A stretch of DNA of 63,247 nucleotides, counting the filler, from Psammoneis japonica (lineage: Eukaryota), in NCBI GenBank assembly GCA_008632985.1. It is 4 parts of 4 records of this genome, joined end to end, with 100 filler letters (N's around TTAATTAATTAA, not from the genome) between each part and the next. Parts side by side here need not be neighbours in the genome. Positions count along the whole stretch, not along the records: positions 1 to 26,410 come from QPGO01000231.1; 3 more parts are not named here. One strand, given 5' to 3'. The position numbers and the translations under genes are program-made. The notes beneath the pieces are model-generated. The model was given only the letters and a program-made list of their open reading frames with translations, ran no database searches and had not been told where the DNA came from. This document shows, in pieces, positions 1-53,245 of this stretch (its first letter is position 1; every line of letters starts with the position of its first letter).

Positions 1-3000
1 TTTTTTTTGTCTCACTCTTTGGAGTGAAACATTTGGTGGTTTGTGTGATTTGTCATTTGGCATCAGCAGGGTGCTTGTTGTTGTGCAAGTTTGCAGTTTG
101 CATTCACACCTTTGACAACCCACCCACAGCCATCACAGACTGCCAAGGCAAGTGCATCAATGAAGAGCACAGGCAGCCCAGTGGGATGATCTTTTAGCAA
201 CATTGACTTGCTGGTTTGACAATCATTGAAGGCCACTCAAATGACAAAAAAGTGCAGTCCCACCATGCTGACCATGTTGGCAGCAACCATCACACAAAAT
301 GTGCCACATTTGCACGCATCCACAATGAGGGCTACATTGTGGATGACTCACCAACTGATCAGTCAACAGACTTTGTGTCATGCACTCAGGTGCTGTTGAA
401 CATTCTGACAACATGGAGGAGGAGACCAAAGGGGAGAGTTTTGAGAATGATGATGCACTTGCACTCATGAAATCTCCCAACAGCAAGCCCAACACCCCAG
501 CCAACTGACACCAAGACACCTTCCCAACAAGTTTGAGCTCATTCATTAACAAAATGTGTCAATGCTGGGAACAGTGTGCTTGCCACTGCTCAACTCCACC
601 ACTGCCATCAACAGCATGAAGGAGGCAACACGCTGAACAAAAAGCTGCTGAAACATGTGGGCAGGGACACTGTGAAGCCAAAACAAGGGCAATGGCTCAA
701 AAAGCCAAAGTGAAAAACCCAGCCATTGAGCCAACTGGACTGTGTGTGTGTTGACAGCAAAAAATGTGGACTTGGGCTGCAAAGAAGTTCTGGGGCCAGC
801 AGCTTGATTTGCACATGTTGATGCAAAGAATTGGGTGGGATGAGAGGCACTGATGAAACAAGGTCAAACAACAAGTCCAGAAGACATGTTCCACAAAATG
901 AGACAAAGCATTGTGGCACAGAAACACAGATTTGTTGGTCTAGAGACAAGTCTTGTTGGCCCTGAAAGCATTGGTCATGTCATTGATTTGTGTCATGTGC
1001 CAGGCAATGAAAAAGCAATTGTTCAACTTTCAGTTCTGCAGGGAGCCCACAAGACAAAAGCATTGATGCTGCAACAATGTTCCAATGTGACAAGTGACAG
1101 TTGTGATTGAAACCAAAATTGGACAAAAATGGATTGTGTCATGAGTCATGTTTGACAATTCAAAACCAGCATTGTTCAACAAATGAAAATGGCTTGGCAC
1201 AGCATGTTGCTTTTGAAGGGTGCCACCAGTGGCCCACAAATTCTGGCTGATCCACTTGTGCTTGTGCTGCAACACATCATCAGGCAGTCCACTCTGGAAG
1301 TGTGGGTTTGCCGGTTGCAGGGCAGAGGTGCTGACAACACTTTCAAACAGGTCTGTGCTTTTTTGTCATGGTTAGATTCACACTCATTGCACCATTTTGT
1401 TTGAGACATGACAAGAGGTCAAGCACAAAGTTTGAGAAGGAATGCAATGAAAAATCAAGAAAAGACAATCTTCTTGCCCTCTGCACCCAAAGGGTTCAGG
1501 CCTTTTCCAGAAGCATCTTGGGCCCAGCTTCTGTTCATCTGGTGTCATTGTGTTGGAGATCTGTCATGACAAGCAGAGCACAAAAGTGCAAAATGGCAGG
1601 CTGCTGAGCACTTTAGCTTGATGCTCAAAACAATGAATCATCTCAACACTGTGAGTGATCCCAGGACAAATGATGTTCTGTTTTCAAAAGTCAGATGCTC
1701 CTCCTTGTGCTCAGCAGAGCTCACTGACTCACACACTCATTCAAACAGTGCCGTGGCCTGCATTGCTTCCCAACTTGTTGGTGAAATCTTGGTGTTGGAG
1801 CTGCAGCTGCCAACCAAAAGATTGCTCTGCTCTTCTGTCACAGATGTGCCTGTGAATTGAATCTGCAAGTTTGTTGGAGCTCACAAGGAGCTGGCCAGAA
1901 GCAAACAAGCAGAAACCCACAAAAGTCAGGCATCCAAATGTCACTCTGTTTGCAATGCTGTGGGTGAGTGGCATGAGAATGATTGTCAAGAACTCTGGCA
2001 GAGCATTCCTCACATTGTGCCTCTCAATCTTGTCCAATTCTCCCATCATCATCATTGCACCCACAGGCACCAGTGTGGGTGCTGTTGCACTGCTCCACTT
2101 TGTGCTCAGCAGTGCTCACTCACTCACACACTCATTTAAACAGCAACTTTCTTGGAGTTTGCAAGGAGTTGGTCAGCAGCAAAGTGGAAACCCACAGAAG
2201 TCACACACCTGAGTGTCACTCCATTTGCAATGCTGCAGGTGAGGAGTGTCATGAGAGTGATTGTCAAGAACCCCAGCAGAACATTGCTCATGTTTTGAGC
2301 CACTCAATCTTGGCCAATTTTCTCACAATCATTGCACCCAGAAGTGCCAGCAAGGGTGCTGTTGCACTGCTCAGGACAGCAGTGACAAAAGGTTCCAAGA
2401 AATGCCAGCAGCAAAAATTTTCCAATGACTGCACGGCTGCCAGGCCAGTTGCACCCCCTTCCTTGACTTCAGCAGTGCATTTCACAATGACAATGGCTGG
2501 TGTTGACCAGAGAAAAGCTCTGCAACAAGAACACCCACTGCCAAAGCCACAAATGATCAACCCAAACATGACTCCAGAGATGTCAAAGACACAAAGCAGA
2601 ACAACAGGAGCTCTGGTTGTTGCTGGACACAGCACTGATGCTTGTGCAGAAAATGCACAAAGTGCAGCAGCTGTGTGTGTTCATTGTTGTGACACATGGG
2701 AGGAGAAAATTTGAGTCCAGCCAGCCGCTGCGCACAATCTAGCCAACAACACAATCAGCACAGTGCACCAGTGCCAACATCAATGTGGAACCCTTGATGC
2801 TGTCATGATGACAGAGCAGCAGTGCAACAAGAAGCACACTCCAGTCTGTGTGCCAGCTGGAGAGGAGGGTCTGACAAGTTGCCATGGTTGTCCAGTGTCT
2901 TTTTGTTGGTGACAATCAAACTCACATTCTGACCACTCCAGTCATGACTGCAAGCAAGAATCCCATCACAGCTCCCCAACAGTGCTTGTTTGTGCACTTG

Positions 3001-3440
3001 GCCACTTCTTCTGGAACAATTTTTGTGGGTGAAGTGAACAGCTCTGTGCATGAGAAACTGTCACAACAAGAATGCCCAACCACCAACTCCCAGTTAAGGC
3101 CTGGTGCACAAGTTGGAAGTGCACTGAGGCCAGTTCCTGAGCACAGCAAAGGCAGTGTTCCACAAAGCTGGCTCCAGCAAACAAGTGGTTGCAGCCGAAA
3201 GCGCAGCAGCAAAGACTGCATCATTGTGGTCAACACTAACTTCACCCACAACATGCAAATTTGCCAGCAGCAACAGGCTGCTCAGCATCAGAAAGACAGC
3301 AGCACCTGTTGCAGACTTCGCTGGCGCTGTGACACCTGTGCTTTGCTCGCTCAGGCAAAAGAGCGGCACACCAGGCGATCTGCGATTGAGCTCATTTAGA
3401 CAGTGTGTGCTTGTAAGTTGTGGACTTGATGAAAGGACCT
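1..3440. repeat. Unclassified degenerate interspersed repeat (family A), copy 1; CpG- and TpA-depleted
   Basis: Near-identical inverted copies at ~41730-45210 and (partial) ~57640-59518. About 10 TA dinucleotides in 3.4 kb by eye. Only spurious Cys/His-rich, Tyr-poor ORFs. Internal ~277-bp diverged tandem duplication (~1905-2100 vs ~2185-2375). Confidence 0.85.
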
Positions 3441-3837
3441 AACCTTGGCATCCGTGAAGACACATGATGTTGTTTTGCTTTTTTACGTGCTCTATTCTCA
3501 ACTACATCACAGTCAGTGCCAGCACAAGCGCAACACATGACATAAAACTAACAACGAACGAACGAACGAACATCACACCGGAACTTCGTCTGTCGAAGTA
3601 CGAGTCACAGGTGATGCAGATGATCTGCAAAAAATAAAAAAGCCAAGAAACAACGCCCATCACCATCACCCATCATCATCACCATTCACATTCGCACTAC
3701 TCCTCTTTTTATACTGTACCCTATCAACCCTAAACAAAATATATATCGCTCATTCTATCACAGCACTCGATATGTTTGATTCCATGAGAATATCTGCAGA
3801 GAGATCGCTCTATGATGCGGGTAGATCGAGACGGACA

Positions 3838-5259
3838 ATGTCAACAGCGAAACCAAGGAAATCGTTTGTCGTGGTGTGTTTCACGATTATGTTAACAGTT
3901 GAGCGCTCAATGGTTTCGGCGTTTTGCCTGGCTTCTAGTAGCAGTGTCAATTGTCCAGCACGATCGAAACCTTGCTTTGCCAAGCCGCCTCCAGCCTTGA
4001 GCTTTGATTTAGATGCCATTGAAGCCTTTGAGGAGCAGCTCGAAATGGATGGAGCTGACCTAACGCCCATGGACGACGAGGACGACTTGGAGTTTGAGGC
4101 TGACTCTGGAGAAATAAAAGAATACATGGTACCGGATGAACTTCATAACAAACGTCTCGACGTGGCCGTTGCAAAGCTGGAACCTACGTTGTCTCGATCT
4201 CATTGTGGTCATCTCATCACAGACGGAAATGTTCGTATTGTTGGAAAGAACGATCAACAAAACATTGTACAGACAAAATCCACAAAAGTACAAGCCGGAA
4301 TGAGACTAGTTGTTCAACATCCTGCAGAGGAGAAGCCCACAGAGATCATCGCACAAGATTTGCCTCTTGACATTCTCTTTGAAGATGAACACATGATTGT
4401 TTTGAACAAGGCGGCTGACATGGTGGTACATCCCGCGGCTGGCAATTGGGACGGAACGGTTGTGAATGCGCTGGCTTATTATCTCGCCAATGTAAGTCCA
4501 TATGGTACTGGGGACTTTGTAGACGTAGACGGAAGTGTCGATCCAAAAGAGGCTGAGGGTATAAATGTGGATGGCACCGAGGGAGAAGCCATATCGTTTC
4601 GCCCGGGCATTGTTCACCGACTAGACAAAGGAACCACTGGGGTGTTGGTGGTGGCAAAGACACGAGCTGCTCTCGCCACATTGTCCGAAGCGTTTGCTGC
4701 TCGTCAGGTTAAAAAGACATATATTGCTATTACGGTTGGGAACCCCGGAAAGAGAGTTGTGATTGATAAACCGATTGGAAGACACCCGACGTATCGACAA
4801 CGCATGAGAGTTGTTCCAGATCCACACCGAAAAAATAGGAATCGTATGGCTCCCAAAGATCGAATCCCTAGTAATTCGACTGCGGGACGTCGGGCTCTCT
4901 CTTTTGTTGACAGCCTTGCCTTTGACGGAAAGCTGAGTGTAGTGCAGATTCGTATTGAAACTGGTCGTACTCATCAGATTCGCGTTCACCTACAAGATCG
5001 ACACACACCAGTGTACGGGGACGATGTGTATGGGTTGTCAGACTGGAACAAGAGATTATCCAAAACGCATCAGATACGGCGTCCACTCTTACACGCGCAA
5101 AAGCTAGAACTCGACCACCCCGTCACTGGAGAGCACATGGTGTTTCTTGCCCCACTTGCAAATGACATGTTGCGAGTAGCAACTAACGTGTGGCCCCAAG
5201 GGAAGACTGAGAGAGCAGATCTCTTTGTTGGATCGACCGGTGATGATCTCTCACAGTGA
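3838..5259 (+). CDS. rluD: RluA/RluD-family RNA pseudouridine synthase with S4 domain, probably plastid-targeted
   Basis: S4-like RLDVAVAKLEPTLSRSH; motifs LNKAADMVVHP, GIVHRLDKGTTG (catalytic Asp), TGRTHQIRVH, GDDVYG and LLHA. The N-terminus MSTAKPRKSFVVVCFTIMLTVERSMVSA-FCL resembles a signal peptide plus ASAF cleavage motif. Start ATG uncertain (3772/3838/3889). Confidence 0.9.
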   Translation: MSTAKPRKSFVVVCFTIMLTVERSMVSAFCLASSSSVNCPARSKPCFAKPPPALSFDLDAIEAFEEQLEMDGADLTPMDDEDDLEFEADSGEIKEYMVPDELHNKRLDVAVAKLEPTLSRSHCGHLITDGNVRIVGKNDQQNIVQTKSTKVQAGMRLVVQHPAEEKPTEIIAQDLPLDILFEDEHMIVLNKAADMVVHPAAGNWDGTVVNALAYYLANVSPYGTGDFVDVDGSVDPKEAEGINVDGTEGEAISFRPGIVHRLDKGTTGVLVVAKTRAALATLSEAFAARQVKKTYIAITVGNPGKRVVIDKPIGRHPTYRQRMRVVPDPHRKNRNRMAPKDRIPSNSTAGRRALSFVDSLAFDGKLSVVQIRIETGRTHQIRVHLQDRHTPVYGDDVYGLSDWNKRLSKTHQIRRPLLHAQKLELDHPVTGEHMVFLAPLANDMLRVATNVWPQGKTERADLFVGSTGDDLSQ

Positions 5260-5367
5260 AGAAATGAATATCATATAGTATGGAACTCGTTCAGGAAACA
5301 GAATGGGTATTGTTTTTAAAAGTCTTTAGCTTGCTTCCCACAAGAGCGAAAAGGTTGTTCCATCCTT

Positions 5368-6692
5368 TCAATCTTGCCCGTAGAGCATAGGAACGTCACT
5401 TCGTTTTGTGTACTGAAGCATATACGCACTGCTTGTTCGGCCACCCCATCCATTTGATCCTGCCCGGCCTATAAGGCGACTCAGCGGATTTCTGTTTTGT
5501 GCATTGGGAGAACCGGCGTCATCGGCTATCCCCCCCCAGCTCCATAGGCATCCGTAACCATATCACGAAAGCTCACCTCCGTAACTTCATGGTCATTGAA
5601 ACGATACCAAGTGTCTTCCTCTATCTCAGGACGGACGTATGAATAGTAATGGCCTGAGCCGTACTCGCCCACGTGTACAACCACCGACTGCAAATCGTAA
5701 ACTGCATTGTTGCCGCGCAGCTGCTTCGCTGGAATATCACTGCATACCTCCGTAAGGTCCAGCACCTTTGGGAACGAGAAGCGGTCATTGATTTTGCTCA
5801 CTATGCCCGTATTCCAGTCATATTGAAACCGCTTTAGATGAAGCTGAAGAACGGATGGCAGCCCGTGGGATTTCAACAAGGATCCTTTCAAAGCATCTAC
5901 CTTATCAGCACCCCTTTCGGGCCTCCACCCGTTTCCTTCCTTTTCGCTTAAAAGCTCGGGAGCACCAAACATCCCTTTTATAGACGCAAGAGCGGAGCGA
6001 CTTTGAAACCCATCAATGAACAAGACAGAGACAAAGAAACATTGAAAGCATTGCGACAGATAAGGGGAGGAGCTCGAACGTCATTGATGAAAATCATACC
6101 TTTTGACTTCTAAAGACAAATCTAGAAAAGGTTCCTCTCGCCGCCTTTCCTTTCTACTCCCGTCGACAGCAGATATGTAATCCTCATAAGCTCCCTGATA
6201 CAAATCCAACAGTTTCGGATGTTGCAGAGCAGGCAATAACAGCTTCCAGAACTCTTGTGAATCCTGCTGCTCCATTACATGAATACCCAGATCATGGCAA
6301 AGCATTCTTGGTGCTACGGAAGAAGCAAAGTCCGTCTTGGACGACTTCTCCATCTGTACAAAGACATCGCGCAGCGCCTTGAGGGCAACGCTCGCTTGAG
6401 AGCCGTCCTCCGTCTTGGTATCAAGTTCAGCATCCTCGTTCGAGGATGTAGGTGGCTCACGAATAATGAGCTGTCGAATCCGAGGAATATGGAAGGCACA
6501 TTGAAGCTGAGCATTCATATAGCATGTGTTTCCCAAGTTTTGTAATCCCGTCGAAACCAACGTTCTGGAACTTTTCGTTTTGATATCCGAAAGCCCGGTT
6601 GAAACGTGTCGGGCTAGAGTAAACACACCAAAGAGAAATAGAGTGTTTCTGAGTCGATTGGCAGAAATCATAGGAGGCTGAATATGTACCAT
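5368..6692 (-). CDS. Ubiquitin-specific protease (peptidase C19) with N-terminal signal-peptide-like segment; 2 exons
   Basis: Cys box GLQNLGNTCYMNAQLQC, QQDSQEF, LHLKRF and His box VVVHVGEYGSGHYYSY...WYRFND. GT-AG intron 6099-6001 joins the ORFs in frame. The terminal motif SAYMLQY lies one base out of frame after a G8 run (5530-5537), with a stop at 5368. Confidence 0.9.
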
Positions 6693-7280
6693 TTCCCCTA
6701 CCAGCGATGCAATGATCCAAAAGCTGTCTTCTTTATATCTTGGTTTCCTCTCTGGAACCTCTCCTTTAGAACAACATCAAGCAACAATAATCCGTCATCA
6801 TCCATCACCGCATCCAGCATCGTCAATCATCACCTGTCACTTTCAATCCGCGCAAACCCAACGCGCATGCATCGGGTTCTGGGTTCTCGCCGTCCTACCG
6901 GTACCGGCATGTTCTGTTAGCTCCTTGTTCCGTTAGTCTAGTCTTTGCTTCACAAGATAGCCCGTAATGGTAAAAGTGAAATGTAAGTTGAGTCTCTGTC
7001 TTGTCGTACGACTACAATAGAAAAAATGCTGCTCCATGTTGAATGTGCTCGAGCGGCTCATGATCGACAGGTACAGTAGGACTAGCGGGGGCTAGTGAAG
7101 AAATCTCTTTGATACGAATGCTTTTCAAAAGAGTAATCAATACGGTAAACTACTGCATCTCGCTTCTTTAATTAAATTCTTTACTTTGCGCATTCTCTGG
7201 TAGCATATTATGGTTCCTAGCCATCGAGCCTTTCTTTCCCTCTTCGGGTTTTCGTCCGATATTTTTGGCTTTTTAACGCC

Positions 7281-7994
7281 TTACTTCTTTTTCGGAGGAG
7301 GCAAATCTTTCTTACGCTGCGCTTCGTAAAATGATTCGAGCCTCTTTTGAAATTGCTCGTCGTGCTCCCTCCTCATCTCTTTCACCTTATCCTCGAGCGC
7401 CTTTGCGGCCTCTCCCAGATGCCAATGCTGCGTCTCTGCATGAGGAATATGCTTGACGCCACGTTCCTGGCGCTCCGCCAGCATTTCGTCGTCCAACGTA
7501 GCACAAGCTTGTATGAGAGAATCAATCAGGCCCTCGACGCGAGACAACTCTTCCTGATTGACCTCGGCGACTCTGTGAAATTTGGTATGGTCGTGGTGCA
7601 AAGAGGGTTCCACATGTTCCAATCCTTTGGCATTGACCTCTCGTTCGTGTAGACGGTCCACGACACGGACCAGCATGTCGGCAGAGCACTTTTTCTCGCG
7701 GAGTTTATCTAGAAGAGGCCTGTCAGAAAAGAAGAGGCCATCAATGACCCTGTCGGTTTCCTCGTCGCGCTTTGCCTTTTTCGTCAAGAGGTCAGCGTGG
7801 ACCGCGTGCTCGTCTGCTTCCGCTTGGGCACGGAGCTCTCGTGCCATGCGAAGCAAACGTTCTGCTTCGCTTTCCTTGGTAGAAAATAAGGCGCTCTTGC
7901 AAAGGCGGCGTGGCTTGGGAACAACAACAAAAGAGTCACACAAACATACCGCTGCGAGAAGGCATGTCAGAGCTGATATCTTTGTACCCCACAT
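7281..7994 (-). CDS. Hypothetical helical/coiled-coil protein with bipartite plastid-targeting leader
   Basis: Clean 237-aa ORF from ATG 7994. Leader MWGTKISALTCLLAAVCLCDS-FVVVPKPRRLCKSALFST gives a signal peptide, +1 Phe and a basic transit peptide. Normal CpG/TpA content. Confidence 0.8.
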   Translation of the reverse strand: MWGTKISALTCLLAAVCLCDSFVVVPKPRRLCKSALFSTKESEAERLLRMARELRAQAEADEHAVHADLLTKKAKRDEETDRVIDGLFFSDRPLLDKLREKKCSADMLVRVVDRLHEREVNAKGLEHVEPSLHHDHTKFHRVAEVNQEELSRVEGLIDSLIQACATLDDEMLAERQERGVKHIPHAETQHWHLGEAAKALEDKVKEMRREHDEQFQKRLESFYEAQRKKDLPPPKKK

Positions 7995-8425
7995 CGTTCG
8001 GAAAGAGTCACAAAGCGTCCTATGGCTCGTTCTGGTACTTTGAACTTCCCGTTTCAATTTCCTCCTCGGTTACTCTTGAGACTATGATATGGTCGTCTTC
8101 GTTGCCAAACCCGAAACTCAAAAACACAAGACAATGTCGAGAAGATCCATCATGAGCAGGCTGGATGGCAGGCTGGCACGCACGCACAAAGCAGATCCGA
8201 TTTCGTGCCGCGTCATCAAATAACGGTCATGTCAACTTTATTTAGGGAAGAAGAACACTAACATAAACATATTAATATGTGAATAAAGTAATAGAAATGC
8301 TAATCTTGCTTTGCAAATCTGCCACCCGTCGTCTGTGCGATCTTTGTGCGGTGCGTAGATAGACCTGCCGGCACTACCATGAGCCCTGAAGCCGTCGCTT
8401 CACCTCATTACATACAGAGTGTTCG

Positions 8426-11400
8426 ATGCCTTGTATGATTGAATCGACTGCCAATGATTATAAGCGACGTCGAAGAAGGCGTCGTAAGAGAGAGACGTTT
8501 CGGATTCTAAAATATGTTGGACTTTTTACGTTTGCCTACAGTCTGACAGTAGGCTGCTCCTTTGCACCGCTGTCGAAGTTCATCGGCTCTCGTCGAGGCA
8601 TGCACAAGCCACGAGGCTCTGTATCAGTTTTTGTATCAAAATCTAGAATAAATATTGAGCAACCCGACAACCAGAAGAGTTACTGGATGCCCCCAGAAGA
8701 AGTGGAGAGGCTCAAGGAAACTGTTGATATCGTGAGAGTTGTTGAAAGCTACGGTCTGCCAGAATTTCGACGAAGGAGTGAAACGAGTGCTGTCGCTCGT
8801 TGTCCGTTTCACGACGATCATAATCCATCTCTTAATGTGGATTCAACGAAACGCATATACAAGTGCTTTGCCTGCGGTGCGGGCGGAGATGTATTTCAGT
8901 TTGTACGGCAAATCAGCGACGTGCAGGGAGAACCAATGACGTATGGCCAAGCAATTGCGCACGTGGCGAAAGAATATGGGGATGGTTCTTTTGAACTACA
9001 AAGCAGCAGTACGAATGATAGAATGAGTGATGAAGAGCGCCAAGCAATGCGGGCCAAGAAGGAACGATTGATGCTCGCCAATGCGGCAGCTGCAGACTTT
9101 TACGCGAATTGTCTCATGACGTTACCATCAGCGGGTGTGGCACGATTCTATCTTCAGTCACGTGGTCTGTCACCTGCCACGGTCCGAACGTATGCCATGG
9201 GCTTTGCACCAGATGCTTTTTATTCGTCATCATTGGCAGGTAAAAAATGGGGCGACGGGAGTCTCGTGAATCGACTTTGTGAGTTAGGCTTTGCACCGGA
9301 TGAAATTGTTGACGCTGGATTAGCAATTCGTACCAAGAAATCGGAATGGGGCAAGCATCAGAATAGAACAGGCTCTGACTCTTTGCTGCAGAAAGATGGA
9401 AATGCAACTGCGAGCCATGATTACTCAAATTTGATGGATCGCTTCCGTAATCGCCTTGTAGTCCCTATTTTTGATGCACGAGGAAACAAGGTGCTTGGCT
9501 TTGGGGGACGCGTTCTGTCAGACGAACCTTTAAGCAACAAGACAACCAACTTCAAGGCTCCAAAGTATTTAAATAGCCCCGAGTCGTTGGTATTTCAAAA
9601 GAGTCATTTGCTGTTTGGGCAGCACGTTGCGCAAGCTGCTCTCCAAGATACAAAGGCCGCCGCCACAAGCAAGAAGGAGCAATCGAATTTCATCGTTCTG
9701 GTGGAGGGTTACATGGATGCAATTTCCCTGTCGGAAGTTGGGATTCAACAAGTTGTTGCTAGCATGGGAACCGCTGTATCGGAGCAACAAATTGGAAACG
9801 CAGCGAGAACGGTTGGATCACACGGTGGTAAGCGCTTTAGAACAATGAAGTATCATTGTGTGATGATTCGTACGGATGCAGCTGACTCACCCCTTGTCAT
9901 TTCCAAACAGGCCGAATCGTGCTATGCCTTGACGCGGATCAAGCCGGAATCAACGCGATGGAACGTCTATGCAGTGGAAACATCTTGTCAAAGACCTGCG
10001 ACAGGTATGCGGTTGAAATTGCCATAGCCACATTGCCTGGTGGGATCAAGGACCCTGCGGAATTCATTGAAGCACGTGGTGGAGCCCAGAAAGCCGGTGA
10101 GGACTTTAAAACGCAAATAATAGACACCGCCAAAGATTGGACTGTATGGTATCTGGAACAGCTCATGTCACGGTATGACCCAAAGGCGCTGCGAGGCAGT
10201 CCGGCAACCTTTGCGGGTGTCTGCGAACGCGTTTCTGACTTTCTTGCTAATTTTAAGAATCCGGGGGAACGCACCAAGCGTTCGTATGAGGTGGCCGGGA
10301 TTCTCTCAAAAGTCGTATCTGGAGGCGATGACGGGGAATCCAATAGTGCTTTGCGCATCCAGCTGGAATCCGACCTGGTGGCAATGACATCAAGAAAAGC
10401 CGCTGCCAAAGATTCAGTGACGCGACGGATTGAGCAAGTCGACGGCGTTGAACCTGACGTTGTTAGATCTATGCAAATGAAAATGTCCAGCGGTGAAGGA
10501 TTAGTAAAGATTGACAAGGACTCAAATGATTCCAAGAGTCCTTTGCAGACAAGCGCGAGTCGTGAACAGGCTAGAGTGCCGCCGACTTTTGATATCAATC
10601 AATCTCCCAACCCACAGCGTCGTAAGATGCGACCAAGAAACCGCGCACGCCCCCCGTTGACACCGCATTTTGCCGGGTTCAATTTTGCCAACCAAATGAT
10701 GCAGCCTGGCTGGGGGCACCACGAAACAAGGTGAGCCACCATTGTGTGCCATAGCACGTGTGTCCTTCTGTATTCAAATCCGAAATCCCCAACGTCCATC
10801 GTCATGCTTTTATCTTCGCCCTTCTCCCAGCTATCAAAGAAGAAAGACTTTCTGACCCTTTGCGGTATGGAAGTGACGGAAGCGTGGGCAAAGCGTGATG
10901 CAGCTCGAAAAGGATACGATCATGTTCCTGGATTCCTTCGTGATGACATTGTGTATTTTAATTCAAACGAGTACCACGGCCAGCAATTCTTGACGCGGGA
11001 AGCAATAATGGCTGGGTACGTTGACGAAAAGACTAGCAACAATGGCGCTCTTCTCCAACACGGTGTTTCAACGCTCGTCAGACATGAGCCGGAGAAAATG
11101 CTGGTGTCAGCCGAAAATCGGCTGCTTCGCACCATGATAGACTATGCGCCTGCTAGAAATGCAATGAAATCTTCGATTGTATCAAGTGACGCCACCGGAA
11201 CATCTACCCGCATCGAGTGGAGCAGCCCAGAGAAAGAATGGCTCTACCAGCTTTTGGTGGACCCTGCTGATCCAATTCCTCCTGAGCTGCTCGATTCTGG
11301 CGATCTGTCTCAACTCTGGGGTACTCTTTCAAACAGACCTGATGTAAACGCTGGGGCCTTTGGCTTGACAATACCAGCAGCCTTGGAGAAAGCTTCCGTT

Positions 11401-13038
11401 GCAGACCAAGGCAAAATCTCATCCGACAATGATCGAATTCGAGATAACGAAGACCCACCGGAGGTTGTGGATATGGAAGCGAAAGAGTTGGGGATACTCA
11501 ATAGTTTTGCCAAAACGGACGGCACTGTAGTTGACACCGACACCACAGTCTCGAGAGGCGAAATAGAAGCTCCTACTGTTTCCGGCAGAGGCTCACTCGA
11601 CGGTCTCTTTGAACGTGAAGAGGATATTTTTGTAGACACTTACGACGAAACTATCAGCAGAGAGAGGCGAGCCGAGCTTGTTGTTCAAGAGTCACTCTCA
11701 ACTCTAATGCAGGTATCTGTTACAACTAGGCTCGACAACGCGAAGGAGGAGTGGCTTGCTGCATCTCAGGCTCTGTATTCACGTCTTGATAGCAGCACAG
11801 AAGAGATCCACGCCGATGGCACCATTTTCTCTCCGAGTCATGAACGGAAAATGCACGAAGGCATTGAGAAGTTCGAAGAATTTGCTCTCGATGAGTTAGA
11901 AGAATACTGTCAGAAACTCATGTTTAGGATCAAAGACTGTTCTCGAGCTATGCGTGATCTTGATTTATCTACCCAAAGGATTCGTTCTCGTTTGTTGGAT
12001 TATTCCAGTTCCAAAGGAAGCCGATTGTTGCAACAGGAGCAACTTTCCAATATGCTGGATGAGCATATGGCGGAGCTTTCGGGTAATTCGTATCGGCATG
12101 ATGCCCCGGCGTTACATAGAAAGGCTAATGACAGATATGATGGCTCTGATAGCCAGCCAGAATCTCCCTTATTGGTTAAATCAAGCGATGAGGATTTCAT
12201 TCATCAAGAAGAAGACTTCGAAAACGAGCTGCAATCGCTGGAAGAAGATTGGGAAGAATGGAGTCAAGACAGCTTTACTTGGACTCCAGACACTGAAGGA
12301 GGTATTTCATCGTATTCAGGAAACTTTGGGAGAACTGATTATCGCTTGCCCGCTGACGGGTCCTACGGTGGGGAATATATTGACATGGACGAAGAAACTA
12401 TAGACCAGTTTGACATCCGCCTTCGCGAAGAGTATGGTGAGCGCTATGAAACTGATGGGGACGCCATCATGCGCCAGTCTCGCGAAAGAGACAATGGAGC
12501 TCTCATCGCTCAAATGGACGATTCTGGAGTCTGGCAGGATAATCATTCGCCAATAAAATCGTCGTTGGAGTCAGATTTGGAAACCGAAAACAATGGCAAA
12601 AGTGGTGAAACGTCGAAGACCGATAATAAAATATTTGAGTCTACGGTTACCCAGTCGGAACAACCAAGTTACAGGAAGCATCAATCGTCAGAGTTGGTCT
12701 CCCGAACCGCCGAAGATAAGAAGGTGACGAAGATAAATGACGTTGCCGCTGAATACTTCACGAAGACGAAGGAGACCAGCCAAGCAGCAGCTCAACGTCC
12801 TTCTAAGCAGGGAACGAATTCGAAAGGGTCTCGTCCGTTGCCACCAACCTTTGAATATTTCCAAGAGCGCGACAATGACGATAGCACCGTCGATTGCATG
12901 ATTCCAGACGACTACAACAGTAGTGAACTCTTTGATGATGTTGAACCAGACCCGTCCATAACTTCGACCAATTTCCTTTTAGATGACTTCCCATCGCACG
13001 ATGATTTTCTATCGAGAGGCACGGACGGAAACGACTAA
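8426..13038 (+). CDS. dnaG: Bacterial-type DNA primase DnaG, likely plastid-targeted, with long acidic C-terminal extension; 3 exons
   Basis: CHC2 zinc finger CPFHDDHNPS...CFACG; FRNRLVVPI, GFGGRVL, PKYLNSPES; TOPRIM LVEGYMDAISL, ASMGTA, LCLDADQAG and KDPAEF. Introns 9828-9910 (restores frame) and 10731-10830 (needs one extra base, probably in the A-run near 10695). Leader ...LTVGCS-FAP. Confidence 0.88.
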
Positions 13039-13125
13039 TTGACAGTGTACTGTGTGTTAGCTCTTACAAAATAGAAAATCTAGATTTTTGTTACCGATCT
13101 CTTCTTCTGTGATCCTATAAATGAT

Positions 13126-14266
13126 CTATAGTTTGTTTGCTTCGTCCACGTAAGTCTTGACAAGGCTGGGAGCTGATGGTACGCTAGCTCCTCTTGTCAT
13201 AACGCTGGAAGCTCCTACGCCGCATCCGAAAACCAGTCCTTCCCGAATCGCATCATCAGGCCACATCAGCTCGTGTCTAATGTCATTTTTGGACCTCCAG
13301 CTCCAAATACCATAAAGGAATCCAGCAGCAAAAGCATCGCCAGCTCCTGTTGGATCGATAGGGTTATCAACGAAGGGTGCATCCTGCCTCTGCAGAATCG
13401 TCTTGCCACGAAATGCTAAAGCTCCTCTTGCCCCTAATGTGACGATAACACACACATTAGGACCTTTAGAGTCAAAGAAGTCGGTCCAATCCAAAATGCT
13501 ATGAGCAGAGTTGCTGTCAGTAGCTTGTCGGTTGCATCTCACAATTTGACTGACTTCCGTTTCACTGAGAATTAAGAAATCTAATAGCGGAAAGAGTTCC
13601 AGTATCTTGCCATCCCATTTTCCAGTAGCGTCGAACTGGGGGACCAAAGAAATTGCGGTTTTTAATCCACAAGTTTCTCGTTTTCTAACAACCTCCTCAA
13701 GTGTCGCTTTTAGAGCCCCCCAGAAACACGGGATGTTGTAGTAGCCAGCAATGTGAATGTGACACTCTTGTTCAGGATTCGTTACCACAGGTCCGACTAG
13801 TTCTTGCACATCTATTTGAGATGCTCTGAATACCTCCACACAACCTCGATGAGTCATAAACGTTCGCTCTCCGCCACTCACGATGACAATGCAGTGTCCG
13901 GTTGAAGCATTCGAACCAGGAGTAAAGCAATTCGTCATGTGAAAGTCGTGTGTTTTAGCATGATTCATTATCAGGCGTCCATAATCATCACTTGGATTTA
14001 CTACCGTCTGTAGATTGACGGAAAATACAGCTTCCTGTGACTTCGTTCTTTTCTCGCTTGTGTTGGTGACGAGACTCGCCAAGTGGGTTGAAGTGTTGAC
14101 AGCAGATTGAAGATCCACCAGCCATCAGACCGACTGGCTTTTCCAAAAGAGCATCGCCTCCGCGCTCCGGAAAATCACGTTCTAGAAAACAAAAGATATC
14201 GACAAATGCGTCACCCAGGATGTTGAAAGACACGTTTGCGTGTGGTGGATGCTCGCTTGACGCCAT
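13126..14266 (-). CDS. PfkB/ribokinase-family carbohydrate kinase (frameshift near 14105)
   Basis: N-terminal LGDAFVD and AGGS..VNT motifs, GERTF, VIVTLGARGA and the PfkB signature DPTGAGDAFAAGFLYG. The two ORFs are separated by a small indel at ~14102-14112. Confidence 0.85.
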
Positions 14267-14441
14267 GGCCAGTCAGTTGGTCTGATGCAACAAACTTTAT
14301 GTTCTATGTAGATGGGAAAAGATGTTGGAACCCGGATTTATGCAAATGTCGTGAGACAGCACTTCACATCATCATGCAGGTTTGCATTTTCAGGACCCGC
14401 ACAGAACGGTGTGGCCTCCGCCAGCAGTTTGACACAAAGTT

Positions 14442-17400
14442 CTAGTAGATGCAAAATAGACGCAAGAGAGTGAGGAGTCACATCTCCTCATTCTCTTGTG
14501 GAAACCTAAAAGCAATCGAAAGATTTGTTGGTGTTTGTGCATGCTCCTCGAGTGCAGACTTTTGCTTCAAGGGCAGGGTCTGGTGAGGCAGGCACCAGAC
14601 GTGGTGCTCTCGACACTCTGACATTTCCACAAGAGAAACGACTCATTTTACATGTCTCATGTCAGATCAGTCAGCACAGCAGTTGATTGAAGGACCACAA
14701 ATCTGACTGACAATGACTGAGCACTGGAGCAGACAACATCAGGCAACAAAAGGCCTGTGTGTGACACGGAAGAGCAGGCGGGTCAAGCAGCAGCAGCAGG
14801 ATGGCGGCACACACCTTGGAGCCCACTGAAGATCACAAATCACCTGTCCAACACTCACTTTGTCAACATGTTGTGACCCATGCCCAACAGTTTTTTTGTC
14901 AGGGGCTGTGCTTGACAGGCGGGAACTTTCGGCGCAGTGATTTTTGTGTGGCTTTGCGCCATCTTGTCATGATGGACAGTGAATTCAGGCCAATGAGCAC
15001 TTCACATGCCAAGACCTGGTTGTGATCCAATTTGAGGGGGTGACAGCAATTTGCCCAAGCAGCATTGCAAAAGGTGTTGTGAGAGTTGTTTCAAGAAATG
15101 AACATGTGCTGTGTGCCACAGGAGTGAGTCCCCACATTTGCTCCACTTGTGGCCTGCTGGACACAGCAACTGCTTCCCAGCCACTCAACCTCCTGTTGCC
15201 ATCATGCCACAAATGCTTGCCAAAACCATGCATCAATCTGTTGACCCATTGCACATTGCAGCAGTCACCTCTTTCCTTTGCCATTGCATTTGGTGTCCTG
15301 CTCCCACTCTTCCATGGACAAGCAGACTGAGAGCTCCAAACACTCACCCAAATTGTTTGCAGCTTCTGCATTGGACAGCTGCCCAGAGAGTGTGCACATG
15401 CTTGATGACAATGTCACCTCCCTTCAACAACAAGCTCCCCATGACATGTGAGTCCTCCAAAAGTCAAGAACATGTCAGATTGTTCCAAGCTGGACCTGCT
15501 CAACCAATCTGGATGTGATGCCTCCAATGGACAATGACATGGTGGGAAAAACAAACCATGGTGCAGAGAGGACAACAAGTTCAGGGCATGCACTAAACTC
15601 AAGCACTCGGCATGCAACATTGCTGCCAAAACAAGGACACCTTCCTCAAGACCACCCAGGCCATCGCTGAGCACAACATTGGTTGGGAGCATGATGATGT
15701 GGGTGTGATGACAACTGGCATGGCAGAGTTGAGACTCCCAGCCCTCATGCCCCCCCCACAACACAGTTGCAACGGCCACCATGGCTGAGAAGGCAGAGCA
15801 TTAGAAGGTTGCCCTCAGAATCCACCATGGAGTCCACCATGATGACAGCATCAAGATGCACCACACCAACTTTTCCAATTAATTTGCCTTGACTCTTGGG
15901 CAGTGCTCACAAGACCTGTGAAACAGGGCAAAATCATGTCCAGACTGGGCCACTGTTAAAACAAAAATTCAGATTTGACAGCACTCCCACGTGCCTCATT
16001 TAAACTCATTGCATGGCACAATGCCAGACAAGGCATTGCCCAGAGCACACCATCATTGAGACAGAGACTGCCACACTGTCATTCAAACTGGGCAGACCGT
16101 GTCAACCAGCAAATGTTTTTGGAAAAGTTTGAAGACTCAGAGATTCTTGGTGGCAAGACTGGGCATCAGGAACTGTGAGTCACCATTGGCACCATCTCTG
16201 GCAGATGTGGCAGCAGATGCTGACATGCCCACAAATGTTGAGCAGGACCAAGCCTGCCAACAGGTTCTCAATCAACAGCAAGAACAAGTGCAGCATGGCA
16301 ACCCAGCATGCGGCATTAAGAACAAGAATGCCAGTGGTGCTGACAAACATCCTGCAGCTTTTGATGTGGCCTGTGACTTCCAAGCAAGTTTCAACAAAGC
16401 CCCACATCAGCTGGCGCCAGCACCCCATGTCAATCAGCAAGAATTGACCTTCACCACAGATGGCAACAGGGCTGGATGTGGCAGTGGACACAGGAGCAGT
16501 GGTTGAGGATGCAGTGGTCATGGGGATGGACACAGGATCAGATCCAAGGAAGACACCCTCTGAGGCAACTCAAATGCCCATGCTGATCAACCAGCACCCA
16601 GTGTGGCAGATGGTGCCACGGACAAGACACAAGACTCAGGATGATCAAGGCAGGAGGGGTCCAATTCCCACTGGACAGCTCCTCCTGTGACCCCCCAGAA
16701 AACTCCATTGAAGGCCACTTGCTTGATCTAGATGAATGCTGCCAACTGCACTTGGGTCAATGACCCTGAAGATTCAAAGGCTGAAGACCTCACAGTGACT
16801 CAACAGCTGCTCCACAGTGTGTCTGGCATCAAACAAGAAGCCACTCCACAGCGCACATGCTGTCCCTGTGATGCACAAGGACTCTGCATGTGCACATGTT
16901 TGCAAACCAAGCGGATGCTGTCAAGAGTGAGTGCAGCAAGCATGCAGTGCAGGATGCTGCCATTGCTGGAAGAGCAATGGACATCATCGTGCACCTGAGT
17001 GACCAGACCCACAACAAGATCATCCAGTCAAACAGACTCTTCAATTGATCAGTCCCAACATTGCTTTGCTCAAGGGCAAGACTCCTCATCAACAAGGCAT
17101 GCGCATGTGTCTGGGGCTGCAGAGCCCATTTGCTGGTCTGTCACTGAGTGCAATCCTGAACCCAGCCCCCCCCCCCCCCCCCCCCCATGTGATGTCATTT
17201 TGTCAACAAGCTCGCGTTCTAGATCATGTTGTGCAAATTCCTCAAGTTTGGAATGGCGGTCAACCTGCCAAATGGACAACTGTTGCAAGATTTTTCTCTG
17301 CGGGGTCCAGTGATGTGAAAAACTGCTGGCAACAAAGACACCAGTGTGCAGGAGGCACTTCTAGCAGCTGCCACGTCATTGGATGCTTGTGGCTAATGTT

Positions 17401-17750
17401 CTTGAATCGTTTGCAGTTGCAATCACCCACCTGGCATGGAATGCCAGCTGCGCACGTGCTCGCAGTTGTTTTGTGTTGGCATTGAAAATGTCTTCCCAGA
17501 GAGCATGCACACAGTCTATCTGGAGATGTCTCGGGACAACCTCATGCATCAATCTCGAGGGACAAGAAAGCAGTTGAAGCTCAGCCACCACATGCTCTTG
17601 ATGCCAGCACCTCACATTCACAGATGAACGTTTCAAGAGCCACCTTTTGGCTGAAGTGCTTCAAGCCCGCACGAGCATGTCCACGAGTGGCAACGTTGGA
17701 CAAGCGTCACAAGTTTCCAGAATGGTGAATCAAGTTGGACAGTCCATGTG
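14442..17750. mobile_element. CpG/TpA-eroded repeat block containing a degenerate Copia-type gag relic (+ strand, ~15750-16700)
   Basis: 15883-15960 reads FALTLGQCSQDL*NRAKSCPDWATVK, resembling the diatom Copia gag LGQCS..LR......PDW motif. Later GADKHPAAFDVACD resembles the D.YP.....AY motif and is followed by a Gly/Arg-rich stretch. Family assignment is from recalled motifs. Confidence 0.6.
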
Positions 17751-18299
17751 CGACAGCCCATTACGTGATGGATTCCATTGCCATGAATGTTGAGTCGTCC
17801 TTGCCGCCATCAGATTGCCAGATTGTGGAATGGCCAAGTTCTGTCATCGGCAATGTTCAACTCCAGTGGCCCACTCAGCCACCCCCTCTTATTTTCGCGC
17901 AGTTCAGAAAAAAATCTTACATGTGCATCCCTCAGTCACCACGAACACAGCTTGCATTATCGTTGAAGAGAATGCTGATCGTATGAGCGGTTCTTGGTTG
18001 AGAGAAACATGAATCAATCGAAATAAATTTTCGCCCGCCCATCCACCACATCGGCCCGCCCAGCCATCGCCCGCGCGCTTCGGGTTGTTTCAAAGTGTCT
18101 CCTTCAGTCACGAATAACGGTATATTTCATTGCTTAAATGTTGTTTTTGGCGATCGGACATTTTGGCAACAGTTGTCTGGTATGATATTCTCGCACATTT
18201 CTACGATGAACCCGATGTCACAAAAAATCAAACCCACCGGTTTCAAACAAGATCTCTTTACGCAAAAACCACACAATCTCATGATGCTTTCAATCACGT

Positions 18300-20101
18300 C
18301 CACAATGTCCAAACAAACAATGAGATACAACCTTTCTTCCCGCACCGTTCCAATGGAGAGCATGGGGCGTGCTCGCATGAGCGTCGGCGACAAACGCAGC
18401 AGGCTGTTGACCGAAGACGAGGTTTCCCGCGACATGAAGCTTCGACAAGCGGACGTCCTTCGAACGTCTCCAATGGCAGTCATCGGTTCAGTTGAGCGTC
18501 ATTCTAAGCAAACACGATACCTCCGATGTGTGCTTGCTAGACGAATTGACAAGCATTAATGCATCCTCAACAACATCCGAGCATGAATCACGACAAGGCA
18601 TTTCGAAACCATCTCGTCTGGAAGTTCAGCCGAGCTTTCAGACTGGTCACCGATATACTTGGGTTCAGACGAATCGTCATCGCTACTCCGATGTTACAAT
18701 GAGCACTCTCAGCACGATCACTTTGCAAGTGTTGTGCAACAGATTGCCAGCCAGTCTTCAAGCGAATGCCTGTTCATCGATCCGAGTTCTGGTCACAAGA
18801 GGAGGTTGCGGCACACATACAGTACGGATCTTGGTTCACCAAACGTCGTCGGACTTCCTACAAGCAAGATGATGAGGTCGTTCTTGTTCGTTCCAGTCAC
18901 GAGGAGACTTGTGACAACGGAAACAGTCATCTGGCATTCGGCTGGGGTCGCCCAAAGCCTTGCTCGTGTGTGAACCACACTTGCTTTCCTCGCACGCGTC
19001 GAGACCTCCGCCAAAAGACTATCCGCGCCCCAAGAAAATGTCGCATGGACGAGCACTCAAAGCCTGATCATTTATTGTACCTCATGGAGAAGTTACCTGT
19101 TCAAGGATCTTCGAATGAACGTTTCATCGACGCCTTCTCCGGCGAAAAAAGGAAGTATCAGCACAGAGTGTTGGGTTCTCGGAAACGGCGCCTAATCACA
19201 CGTGATCAAGATGACGTATGCGGTGGTATTGGCCTCAGCGCTAGTCCTGAGGAGAGAAGTCAGAGAGTAAGTCATTTTATCATTTGTATTATCACTCCTT
19301 TTCATTGACAATTGACTAAAACCTATTTCTACTTCTACTTTACTCTCTACAATCACAGCTTGCACCTGATACATCAATTCAACACGAGACATCTTCCATT
19401 GCGTCTGTTGCAGCAGAGAATCCTCTCGATGCGATTCTTTTAGATGATGATCACGTCCAAGAGGTGACGGTTCCTGCAGTGGCGAGTACGGTGCAAGATG
19501 ACCCTTCCGATTTCGATGCGTTTGGTCCAGATCAACACAATGACTTGCATGAAGTGTTGATTGTGAACAACAATTGGAAGGGTCTTGCTTACCTGCTTCG
19601 GACAAGGATGGTCCCTTCCACAACATGGCATCAGCAATGGCGGTGCCTTCGGCGTGCGAGGTTCCGTCTGACGATGAGGCTTCCGTTCCAAACCAACACA
19701 ATGGCGTGCCTGAAGCCTTGGGAGAAGATCGAGAAGAAGAAGGGTATGTCGAAGTGCGGGAATCCCTCACTACGGATCACCGTGCTTTTGACAGCGACGA
19801 TCCTATCCACGAGACGGCGTCAGCAGTGGTGGCACCTTCGTCACAAGAGATCCCTTCCGACGAAGGCAATGAGCGCATTCCAGACCAGCACGTTGGTGGA
19901 GACGGGTTGATGGTGGAGACGGAACAGGCAGAAGATCAGCACGCTATTTCACCTGCATCCCTCATTACGGATTCCGTCATTCCAAGGCGGTCTGCTCGGC
20001 TTAGAGAAGCTTTGGGAAGCGTGCATGTCCTCTCTGCTGATGGGAGAACTGTTCGAAGGTCCGCTAGAATCTTGAACCGGCGACATGGCACCGTGGGGTA
20101 G
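18300..20101 (+). pseudogene. Frameshifted/fragmented low-complexity ORF(s) with an internal ~55-aa repeat and a C-terminal RRSARL doublet
   Basis: Repeat HSQHDH...FIDPSSGHKRR...LGSP vs HSKPDH...FIDAFSGEKRK...LGSRKRR. Acidic ORF 19574-20101 ends PRRSARLREALGSV...GRTVRRSARIL. No recognisable domain. Confidence 0.4.
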
Positions 20102-53242: not shown

Positions 53243-53245
53243 AAG

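Follow-up and report, generated by a model that had tools for sequence, protein, structure and literature searches.

Organization of the window

The analyzed window is one stretch of 63,247 nucleotides, from which all counts given here were taken. It consists of TA-normal DNA with intact genes and of six TA-erased blocks with sharp edges adjoining those genes; the blocks contain a copia element, multi-copy repeats, and a uDENN gene fragment. The features are listed below, with the strand where one was assigned and with surviving TA sites sorted by flank into YTAR, mixed, and RTAY (Y, pyrimidine; R, purine).

1-3413: TA- and CG-erased block 1, repeat DNA; 11 TA, 15 CG
3414-14446: TA-normal control DNA with intact genes for pseudouridine synthase, UCH, DnaG-type primase, and PfkB kinase (Pfam); TA observed/expected 0.44-0.73, CG about 1
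14447-17957: TA-erased block 2; 17 TA, 50 CG; survivors 11 YTAR, 6 mixed, 0 RTAY
17958-34487: TA-normal control DNA with a bromodomain-PHD gene and others
34488-40404: TA-erased block 3; 24 TA including 3 in a linker; after masking 12 YTAR, 9 mixed, 0 RTAY
40387-45210, minus strand: inverted copy of 1-4786 (blastn, 96.8% identical), starting exactly at a scaffold linker
41736-47017: TA-erased block 4; survivors 13 YTAR, 8 mixed, 0 RTAY
46856-47029: LTR-like repeat, more mutated copy, 90% identity to 53246-53423
47030-51500, minus strand: decayed Ty1/copia polyprotein gene, interrupted by frameshifts and stops
47077-52672: TA-erased block 5, with the dead copia element; 19 TA, 110 CG; 14 YTAR, 5 mixed, 0 RTAY
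52673-53245: island of spared repeat DNA without the mutations
53246-53423: LTR-like repeat, copy with more TA (6 YTAR and 1 TTAC, hand count from the alignment)
53335-63247: TA-erased block 6; survivors 14 YTAR, 5 mixed, 0 RTAY
57636-58694: third, older repeat copy, about 87% identical; the other two lie at 325-1396 and 43786-44886
26411-26510, 40287-40386, and 59519-59618: scaffold linkers N44-TTAATTAATTAA-N44, 100 bases each, with artificial TTAA that is not biology

The three linkers contribute nine artificial TTAA to the window, none of them within 1-3400. The mass balance given below includes the linker TTAA, and the final survivor counts were made with the linkers masked. The inverted copy was excluded from deduplicated counts.

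Within the copia remnant, the open reading frame (ORF) at 48843-49775 (minus strand) had 139 relatives, the majority with RVT_2 (PF07727) and some assigned to the diatoms Fragilaria and Nitzschia. A tblastn search with 64 relatives gave 343 matches, none of them on the plus strand, with start bins (500 bases) from 47000 to 51000. Read through in full, the frames of the copia region matched no Pfam family. This has consequences for annotation: the rewriting of tyrosine and other residues hides the dead transposons of such genomes from Pfam.

The six frames of 1-3413 also matched no Pfam family, and the ORF at 1983-2711 had two weak matches (E 2e-5 and 7e-5), both to short unnamed proteins. For the ORF at 38627-39586 (minus strand), no relative was found among longer proteins, and this frame is probably open by chance, in DNA from which TAA and TAG have been lost. 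Pfam was run on 84 of the 94 ORFs of at least 110 aa in the erased blocks, omitting 10 in 41737-44822 that duplicate 1-3413; only uDENN at 56036-56560 was detected, plus chance-level matches. No deaminase-fold gene (HxE, PCxxC) was found among the ORFs scanned within the window.

Erasure of TA in repeat DNA

Positions 1-3413 (3413 bases, no N) contain 11 TA, 15 CG, 379 TG, and 454 CA, and about 137 TA would be expected from the TA density of the TA-normal DNA in the window. The observed/expected ratio of TA was 0.05 in the erased blocks compared with 0.59 in TA-normal DNA. The TA-normal genes of the same window serve as a proxy for the ancestral sequence, and the transposons may have differed from them in composition. 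The GC content of the erased blocks was unchanged (0.47-0.52). Between erased and normal DNA, TA and CG were the only dinucleotides lost, and TG and CA the only ones gained. The mass balance showed losses per 1000 positions of 9.6 YTAY and 12.2 YCGY against gains of 14.5 YTGY and 7.5 YCAY, with transitions unaccompanied by transversions. In the repeat DNA of the window, TG or CA now stands in place of almost every TA.

Among the NA dinucleotides, TA alone was consumed. CA and GA were not depleted in the erased blocks, and AA had a rho of 1.16 there compared with 1.12 in normal DNA, which bears out the earlier remark that A-runs remain abundant.

Flanking bases of the surviving TA sites

The surviving sites in 1-3413 are TTAG at 195, 1373, 1614, and 3397; TTAA at 547, 2137, and 3095; CTAG at 941 and 2740; CTAA at 3237; and CTAC at 333. 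Ten of the eleven are YTAR, and the chance of at least this many, given a share of 209/1164 in TA-normal DNA, was 3.2e-7. A preliminary description of 1-3400 had counted nine TTAG, TTAA, or CTAG and one CTAC; these were all recovered, and the one CTAA it had missed brings the total to 11. Its claim that the survivors are almost all YTAR thus holds for this block (10 YTAR, 1 mixed, 0 RTAY), and the same bias was found in all six. With the linkers masked, the pooled blocks contained 74 YTAR, 34 mixed, and 0 RTAY sites (n=108), compared with 209, 591, and 364 in the TA-normal DNA of the window (n=1164; chi-square 195, p 4e-43). The bias that had been described for the copia body was likewise present, as the survivors of 47077-52672 comprise 14 YTAR together with two TTAC and one each of GTAA, CTAC, and ATAG.

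The split was stable in the controls. Without the duplicate stretch 41736-45210 and its gene part, the counts were 66/26/0 (n=92, p 5e-41). Trimming 300 bases from the block edges gave 53/18/0 (n=71), in a run that predates linker masking and counts one linker TTAA at 59568. Correction for flank composition using all YpR steps left the result unchanged. Survival was 0.51 for TTAA, 0.34 for CTAA/TTAG, 0.15 for CTAG, 0.04-0.08 in one-sided contexts, and 0 for ATAC, ATAT, and GTAC, an order that supports the T-A-pyrimidine preference of the preliminary description.

Hazard model and the base that changes

We modeled each strand as being hit independently, with the two half-site hazards additive. 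The cumulative hazard according to the base after A was 0.28 for A, 0.87 for G, 2.47 for C, and 2.76 for T, or relative values of about 10 (TAT) : 9 (TAC) : 3 (TAG) : 1 (TAA). The additive model fitted the data (deviance 18.6, 12 df, p 0.10; deduplicated 14.8, p 0.25), and a uniform hazard was rejected (p 3e-34). An A as the second base after the target multiplied the hazard by 0.48 (likelihood ratio 22.7, p 2e-6), and sites with R-A on both sides made up 18/92 survivors compared with 29/1112 in normal DNA. We are confident that the mutator acts fastest on T-A-pyrimidine. YTAR sites remain because they are slow on both strands and everything else is already gone, and RTAY vanished because it is fast on both strands; the slowest site of all is T-Y-TA-R-A.

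The preference for TAY put forward in the preliminary description therefore stands, but C after A is not favored over T, unlike in the TadA substrate on which that interpretation leaned. Two further features, the roughly threefold higher hazard of G than of A after the target and the influence of the second base, go beyond that description.

The products support the view, implicit in the same description, that the changed base pair is the one adjoining the pyrimidine. YTAY was converted mainly to YTGY and not to YCAY. The TG-minus-CA asymmetry followed the prediction that the pair by the fast flank changes (r 0.96, slope 0.92; 16 contexts, 6 independent), and YTGY+RCAR exceeded YCAY+RTGR by a margin that was 11.7 per kb larger in the erased blocks than in normal DNA (95% CI 5.9-17.2), an argument that presumes that CpG decay yields TG and CA equally.

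The copia remnant offers a further view of the products. A Tyr codon was counted as conserved when 15 or more relatives were aligned and 60% or more of them had Tyr, giving 32 in copia. None was kept; they now read as 16 Cys, 11 His, 2 Trp, 1 stop, 1 Asn, and 1 Val. The Cys:His ratio at lost Tyr codons was 10:3 after a pyrimidine and 6:8 after a purine, a split of the right sign that by itself lacks significance (Fisher p 0.12; 10/13 vs one half, p 0.09).

Comparison of repeat copies

The stretch 1-4786 and its inverted copy at 40387-45210 differ by 90 substitutions and 64 gap columns. By our reading of the alignment, about four sites fit the model and two oppose it (TTAT vs TCAT at 54; TTAC vs TCAC at 2324). 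In the three-way alignment with the older copy, there are positions at which one copy has TG and a second has CA, which implies that the DNA copies were hit independently and on either strand; many of these places lie in one-sided contexts, which runs against the model, though they may descend from CG. One TCTAGA is common to all three otherwise independently mutated copies. The difference at position 1344 is a loss, as the outgroup copy retains TA. In the LTR-like pair, CTGG, CCAA, CCAA, and TTGC in 46856-47029 correspond to CTAG, CTAA, CTAA, and TTAC in 53246-53423.

Polarizing single changes from the copies in the window (1-4786 and 40387-45210, the third copy, and the LTR-like pair) was tried and rejected, as the sites were too few and a TA ancestor was indistinguishable from a CG ancestor at the places with TG opposite CA.

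As a separate observation, the two near-identical copies differ at 83/3413 positions in the erased part and 7/1373 in the gene part. The higher divergence of the erased part is only a hint of a raised mutation rate. Public reads comprised three runs from one sample and study, probably the assembly's own source, and two of them contain the stretch; contigs from the reads, compared with 40387-59518 at 80% likeness, gave totals such as 1548 transition and 444 transversion places (X1), which are not counted as evidence here.

Alternative explanations

The same flank rule would arise if the thymine of R-T-A were the base attacked, say through oxidation or another modification, and faulty repair then put C in its place; the change from A:T to G:C would in that case begin on the strand carrying T. 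TA is self-complementary, so no count distinguishes T>C in R-T-A from A>G in T-A-Y, and in both readings the changed pair adjoins the discriminating flank. We consider an attack on thymine unlikely, as we know of no thymine modification that gives clean T>C transitions at such density.

Error-prone repair synthesis of the Pol eta kind could be recruited to repeats and insert G opposite T at WA, and a link is known between Pol eta and the mutation of A:T pairs within the WA motifs of antibody genes. Such a process would target both TA and AA. Since AA is undepleted, W would have to be strictly T, and the near-total conversion of TA on both strands, the strong effect of the following base, and the absence of accompanying transversions from the mass balance also argue against it, making this source quite improbable.

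The surviving TA sites might instead be mostly new, made by C>T at CA or G>A at TG, so that the YTAR bias would record where they were born and not where others died. The near-identical copies do differ by TA vs CA within YTAR contexts (at 1344, 2740, and 3095), and eight surviving Leu/Val xTA codons, which exclude a CA ancestor, may descend from TG. Random re-making from the blocks' own TG and CA predicts 24/56/28, far from the observed 74/34/0 (p 3e-31). Deamination of CHG-type methylcytosine would yield TAG and CTA, whereas the most enriched class is TTAA. The shared TCTAGA and the loss at 1344 also speak against this reading, which we regard as very improbable, although some of the survivors may be re-made; even if many TA were made anew, their persistence in YTAR alone would still require context-dependent removal.

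Transposon RNA in double-stranded form might be edited by an ADAR-like enzyme and the edits carried into DNA through reverse transcription; this would share with our data the A>G read-out, a U/T before A, and action on repeats, at least as ADARs are summarized in review form. The neighbor preference given for ADAR in Table 1 of a review is 5'-UAG, but G after A slows the change here, TAG being about threefold slower than TAC or TAT. ADAR acts on RNA, so that reverse transcription would leave marks in the transcribed sense alone, whereas here DNA was changed on both strands. The two strands of copia were hit about equally, as seen from the 16 Cys codons (coding-strand A>G) and 11 His codons (other strand) and from the 6:8 ratio after a purine. 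DNA other than retroelements was erased too, including the uDENN gene fragment at 56036-56560 and block 1-3413, which has no retroelement signature, and copies already in place diverged through independent TG-vs-CA outcomes. An RNA-editing origin is thus highly improbable.

That no mutator rule exists, the repeats never having had RTAY or the pattern being due to chance or assembly artifact, is hardly credible: nine TTAA in the window are indeed artificial and the ancestral composition is available only by proxy, but the bias holds in 6/6 blocks with linkers masked, all 32 conserved TAY Tyr codons of copia were lost, and the TA and CG losses are balanced by TG and CA gains.

Comparison with known systems

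RIP in Neurospora and other ascomycetes is a dinucleotide-specific transition mutator of repeats that converts CpA to TpA, so that TA is enriched and GC lowered, and transposons gain missense and stop codons while neighboring genes are spared. Confinement to repeats, dinucleotide-specific transitions, and the sparing of adjacent genes are common to RIP and the process described here. RIP acts on C and makes TA, whereas here an A:T pair is changed and TA is destroyed, making TG and CA, which is the reverse direction. Neither the TpA enrichment nor the lowered GC of RIP-affected repeats was found in the window.

TadA deaminates A34 of the anticodon loop, which is preceded by U33, and evolved TadA is active on DNA. 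We know of no natural TadA or ADAT that erases TA from chromosomal repeat DNA. The A>I chemistry of TadA or ADAT2-ADAT3 would give the A>G seen here, and the T before the target agrees with the consumption of TA alone. The TadA substrate is given in a review table as 5'-ACG, with C after the target A; here C after A is a fast context, and T is about equal to it. TadA-derived base editors are described as favoring Y (T or C) before A, whereas here T alone serves and CA is not consumed.

The closest case is Bigelowiella natans, in which a preprint describes A:T>G:C hypermutation at TpA only, measured in mutation-accumulation lines (bioRxiv 10.64898/2026.01.13.699255, Mettrop et al.), with 231 de novo TpA mutations reported. 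According to that preprint, the targets are DNA of giant viruses and virophages that has become integrated, the proposed agent is an adenine deaminase (ADAT2 homologue), and RIP is named as a comparison. In both organisms TpA alone is hit, the strand deciding whether TpG or CpA results, foreign or repeated DNA is affected and host genes are spared, and TpA depletion with CpA/TpG enrichment occurs in clusters that include reverse-transcriptase sequences. The two cases also differ. Bigelowiella is a chlorarachniophyte, on another supergroup branch from the probable diatom studied here; its process was seen live, whereas ours is known from the end state alone; and TA observed/expected is 0.45 in the Bigelowiella viral region as reported, compared with a far deeper 0.05 here. 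The main text of the preprint contains no flanking-base analysis. A literature search of titles and abstract openings for a diatom case or for TpA hypermutation found only this 2026 preprint, and on that basis TpA hypermutation is in print for B. natans only, without a flank analysis.

Proposed mechanism and significance

We propose that the TA-erased blocks are the end product of a DNA-level mutator aimed at repeats, which replaces A:T by G:C in TpA and so leaves TpG or CpA. The strands are attacked separately, at a rate set by the bases following A. In our view the most likely agent is an adenine deaminase acting on DNA, which would read T-A-Y much as TadA reads U33-A34-C35 of tRNA, and the resulting inosine would be copied as G. 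Taken as a whole, this statement, comprising the repeat-aimed TpA mutator, the flank rule, and the deaminase, is one that we favor by a small measure; adenine deamination as the chemistry is inferred, and we rate it as somewhat less likely than not. A broader proposal is doubtful but can be stated: diatoms, and perhaps the wider SAR group with Bigelowiella, might possess a genome-defense enzyme in the form of a repeat-steered DNA adenine deaminase, derived from the tRNA wobble deaminase and still reading T-A-Y-(not A) in the manner of an anticodon loop.

If this were true, the deaminase would amount to a naturally occurring 'reverse RIP', clearing transposons of TA and with it of all their tyrosine codons, and the rule of about 10:9:3:1 (T, C, G, A; halved by a next A) would be its biochemical signature. 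A mutator of repeats acting on one dinucleotide is a genome-defense principle so far represented by fungal RIP, in the reverse direction, and by the one 2026 preprint on an unrelated alga. A flank rule with rates attached makes the search for the enzyme narrower and offers an assay read-out, namely the relative rates on TAT, TAC, TAG, and TAA oligonucleotides. It also argues against ADAR-like and Pol eta-like agents and makes it possible to ask whether one and the same process operates in the diatom and in the chlorarachniophyte. If confirmed, a naturally occurring adenine deaminase that acts on DNA with such tight specificity for sequence would be of interest for base editing.

CpG loss in the erased blocks

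The loss of CG is a second, separate signal that accompanies TA loss in most blocks, unlike in Bigelowiella as described in the preprint. CpG survival according to flank was 0.17 for YCGR and 0.32 for RCGY, a weak trend opposite to that of TA; the TA flank rule is therefore not a general property of the blocks. In the last 3.6 kb of block 6, TA is gone and CpG is kept, with CG observed/expected at 0.4-2.1 from position 59001 on.

TA-erased blocks and ordinary DNA

Gene DNA and TA-erased blocks take turns along the 63-kb window. The gene DNA has an ordinary dinucleotide content and carries intact, intron-poor genes (pseudouridine synthase, UCH hydrolase, DnaG-type primase, PfkB kinase and a bromodomain-PHD protein); it was used as the TA-normal control. 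In the erased blocks TA stands at 0.05, CG at 0.24, and TG and CA at 1.87 of expectation, and AA, AC, AG, AT and GC are at the same levels as in genes. The sole recognisable transposon is Ty1/copia, with 139 relatives, most of them carrying RVT_2 and some named from Fragilaria and Nitzschia. The source is a eukaryote, probably a diatom.

1-3413: erased block
14447-17957: erased block
34488-40404: erased block
41736-47017: erased block
47077-52672: erased block
53335-63247: erased block
56036-56560 (+): uDENN domain (Pfam E 8e-8), ORF within an erased block

The window is stitched from contigs by 100-base scaffold linkers (N44-TTAATTAATTAA-N44, at 26411-26510, 40287-40386 and 59519-59618), each of which brings three false TTAA. 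Unmasked counts are inflated thereby, and in this genome the linkers would skew any tally of the contexts in which TA survives. Positions 1-4786 are present again, inverted, at 40387-45210 (identity 96.8%); the copy begins exactly at a linker, and the pair may represent a second haplotype or redundancy in the assembly instead of a genuine duplication. Of the 3413 positions in their erased portion 83 differ, compared with just 7 of 1373 in the gene portion, which hints that erased DNA is mutating faster even now.

Contexts of surviving TA

In region 1-3413, 11 TA were seen against about 137 expected: TTAG (four), TTAA (three), CTAG (two), CTAA and CTAC (one each). Ten of the 11 are YTAR (Y, pyrimidine; R, purine), with a chance of 3e-7 at the 18% YTAR share of TA-normal DNA. 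The preliminary description, which had reported mostly YTAR survivors at 1-3400 and read from them a TA(C/T) target, was correct on these sites apart from omitting one CTAA. With linkers masked, the 108 TA of the six blocks comprised 74 YTAR, 34 one-sided (YTAY or RTAR) and no RTAY, compared with 209, 591 and 364 among 1164 TA in TA-normal DNA (p 4e-43). The pattern was found in all six blocks (YTAR/one-sided/RTAY 10/1/0, 11/6/0, 12/9/0, 13/8/0, 14/5/0 and 14/5/0), when the inverted copy was left out (66/26/0 of 92 TA, p 5e-41) and after a 300-base trim of block edges (53/18/0 of 71 TA, with linkers unmasked and one linker site included). The YTAR bias is real and far beyond chance. On the top strand, survivors over all erased blocks included 26 CTAA and 12 of its reverse complement, TTAG, a strand asymmetry.

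As a composition correction, flanking bases were pooled over every YpR step (TA, TG, CA and CG), because changes of TA or CG to TG or CA leave them unaltered. After this correction the depletion of the NTAN classes was highly unequal; equal depletion would have spoken against the proposed target.

Composition-corrected survival of TA by context
TTAA: 0.51
CTAA/TTAG: 0.34
CTAG: 0.15
GTAA/TTAC: 0.08
ATAA/TTAT: 0.05
ATAG/CTAT and CTAC/GTAG: 0.04
ATAC/GTAT, ATAT and GTAC: 0

A Poisson model with independent cumulative hazards from the two strands, each set by the base after A on its own strand, fits the set of 16 contexts with a deviance of 18.6 (12 df, p 0.10), or of 14.8 (p 0.25) on deduplicated data, and a single common hazard is rejected (p 3e-34). 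The fitted hazards were 0.28 for TAA, 0.87 for TAG, 2.47 for TAC and 2.76 for TAT, which supports the proposed T-A-pyrimidine target. When the second base after the target is A, the hazard drops to 0.48 times its value (likelihood ratio 22.7, p 2e-6); sites where R-A follows TA on each strand (T-Y-TA-R-A, for example TCTAGA or TTTAAA) made up 18 of 92 survivors versus 29 of 1112 in normal DNA. The flank trend of CpG loss is weak and opposite in sense, so the flank rule is specific to the TA process. We are highly confident that this rule holds.

Survivors might instead be new TAs. Random re-making from the TG and CA of the blocks predicts 24 YTAR, 56 one-sided and 28 RTAY, and is rejected as the source of the bias (p 3e-31). 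Deamination of methyl-CHG would give TAG and CTA, yet TTAA is the top enriched class. One TCTAGA is common to three repeat copies whose other mutations arose independently, and at position 1344 TA is kept in an outgroup copy, so the difference between copies there is a loss. In copia, eight Leu/Val xTA codons survive; a CA ancestor is excluded for them and a TG ancestor is still allowed. Whether survivors are original or re-made, persistence restricted to YTAR calls for context-dependent removal.

The base pair that changes

Survival by context fits a change of either the A:T pair beside Y or the more distant T:A pair, so the products were used to decide. Per 1000, losses of 9.6 for YTAY and 12.2 for YCGY were offset by gains of 14.5 for YTGY and 7.5 for YCAY; about 85% of YTAY went to YTGY if CpG decay splits evenly. 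The TG-minus-CA asymmetry followed the prediction from the fitted hazards (r 0.96, slope 0.92; 16 contexts, 6 independent). YTGY+RCAR exceeded YCAY+RTGR by 11.7 per kb above normal DNA (95% CI 5.9-17.2, bootstrap of 1-kb pieces), an excess predicted to be negative by the opposite model, in which the pair away from Y changes.

The copia tyrosines, compared with 64 full-length relatives (1200-1500 aa) of the 120 listed, gave an independent, CpG-free read-out. Tyr was kept at none of the 32 conserved-Tyr codons, which had become 16 Cys (TGY), 11 His (CAY), 2 Trp, 1 stop, 1 Asn and 1 Val. The Cys:His split was 10:3 after a pyrimidine and 6:8 after a purine, as predicted in sign and alone not significant (p 0.12 and 0.09). 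Some single-site comparisons between repeat copies run against the adjacency prediction. That the pair adjoining the pyrimidine is the one changed is well supported but not proven, with genes serving as the proxy for the composition of the ancestral repeats.

Candidate agents

Both strands are used near-equally and TG-versus-CA outcomes are independent in genomic copies, which places the process on DNA rather than on transposon RNA. The fact that non-retroelement DNA (the uDENN fragment and block 1-3413) is erased too points the same way. The simplest candidate would be an adenine deaminase that reads T-A-Y; our confidence in deamination of A as the chemistry is somewhat less than even. TA is palindromic, and attack on the T of R-T-A instead of the A of T-A-Y accounts for all counts equally well.

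If A is deaminated, TadA offers a comparison: its target A34 comes after U. This A34 comes before C in a review's table; evolved TadA is described as active on DNA and preferring Y before A, and an ADAT2 homologue is proposed in a preprint on Bigelowiella (Mettrop et al., bioRxiv 10.64898/2026.01.13.699255). The fit to the putative agent is loose, since only T works before A and T after A is as good as C. The deaminase-like specificity favoured in the preliminary description agrees with the untouched AA and the reading of T-A-Y. Pol eta is linked to WA motifs, whereas AA is untouched here. ADARs prefer UAG in a review's table, whereas G after A slows the present process threefold.

Relation to known systems

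TpA-type hypermutation is a kind of system only just described, in one 2026 preprint (bioRxiv 10.64898/2026.01.13.699255). It reports A:T>G:C hypermutation confined to TpA in integrated viral DNA of Bigelowiella natans and TpA-poor, CpA- and TpG-rich clusters, reverse-transcriptase sequences among them; its main text contains no flank analysis. The window contributes a clean replication in which linkers and the duplicate are controlled for, together with the fit of additive strand hazards, the second-base effect and the product asymmetry. A literature search over titles and abstract starts turned up no publication describing TA erasure in diatoms. RIP is a functional analogue, but its direction is reversed.

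Other features of the erased DNA

TA is lost (observed/expected 0-0.07) and CpG kept (0.4-2.1) at 59619-63247, 47701-48300, 49001-50100 and 51701-52600, so loss of TA can be separated from decay of CpG and can reach completion before it. An AT-rich island (52673-53245, about 0.6 kb), surrounded by erased DNA, has normal TA and CG and many RTAY; its end coincides exactly with the edge of an LTR-like repeat (53246-53423), and it is multi-copy by contig depth. The island may be a younger insertion spared by the mutator. The uDENN ORF looks like a host-gene fragment hypermutated as the transposons were.

Long ORFs in erased blocks, such as 38627-39586 (-) and 1983-2711 (+), lack clear relatives and Pfam families. 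Since TGA is the sole stop left once TAA and TAG have gone, ORFs of 200-300 aa often arise by chance and could pass for genes in error. The 8-base unit GGGTCRGY occurs in runs where the last contig begins (59619-59760) and about 1.1 kb on (~60740-60800). Direct repeats (60406-60506 and 60621-60721) lie between these runs, which may be the ends of an unclassified element.
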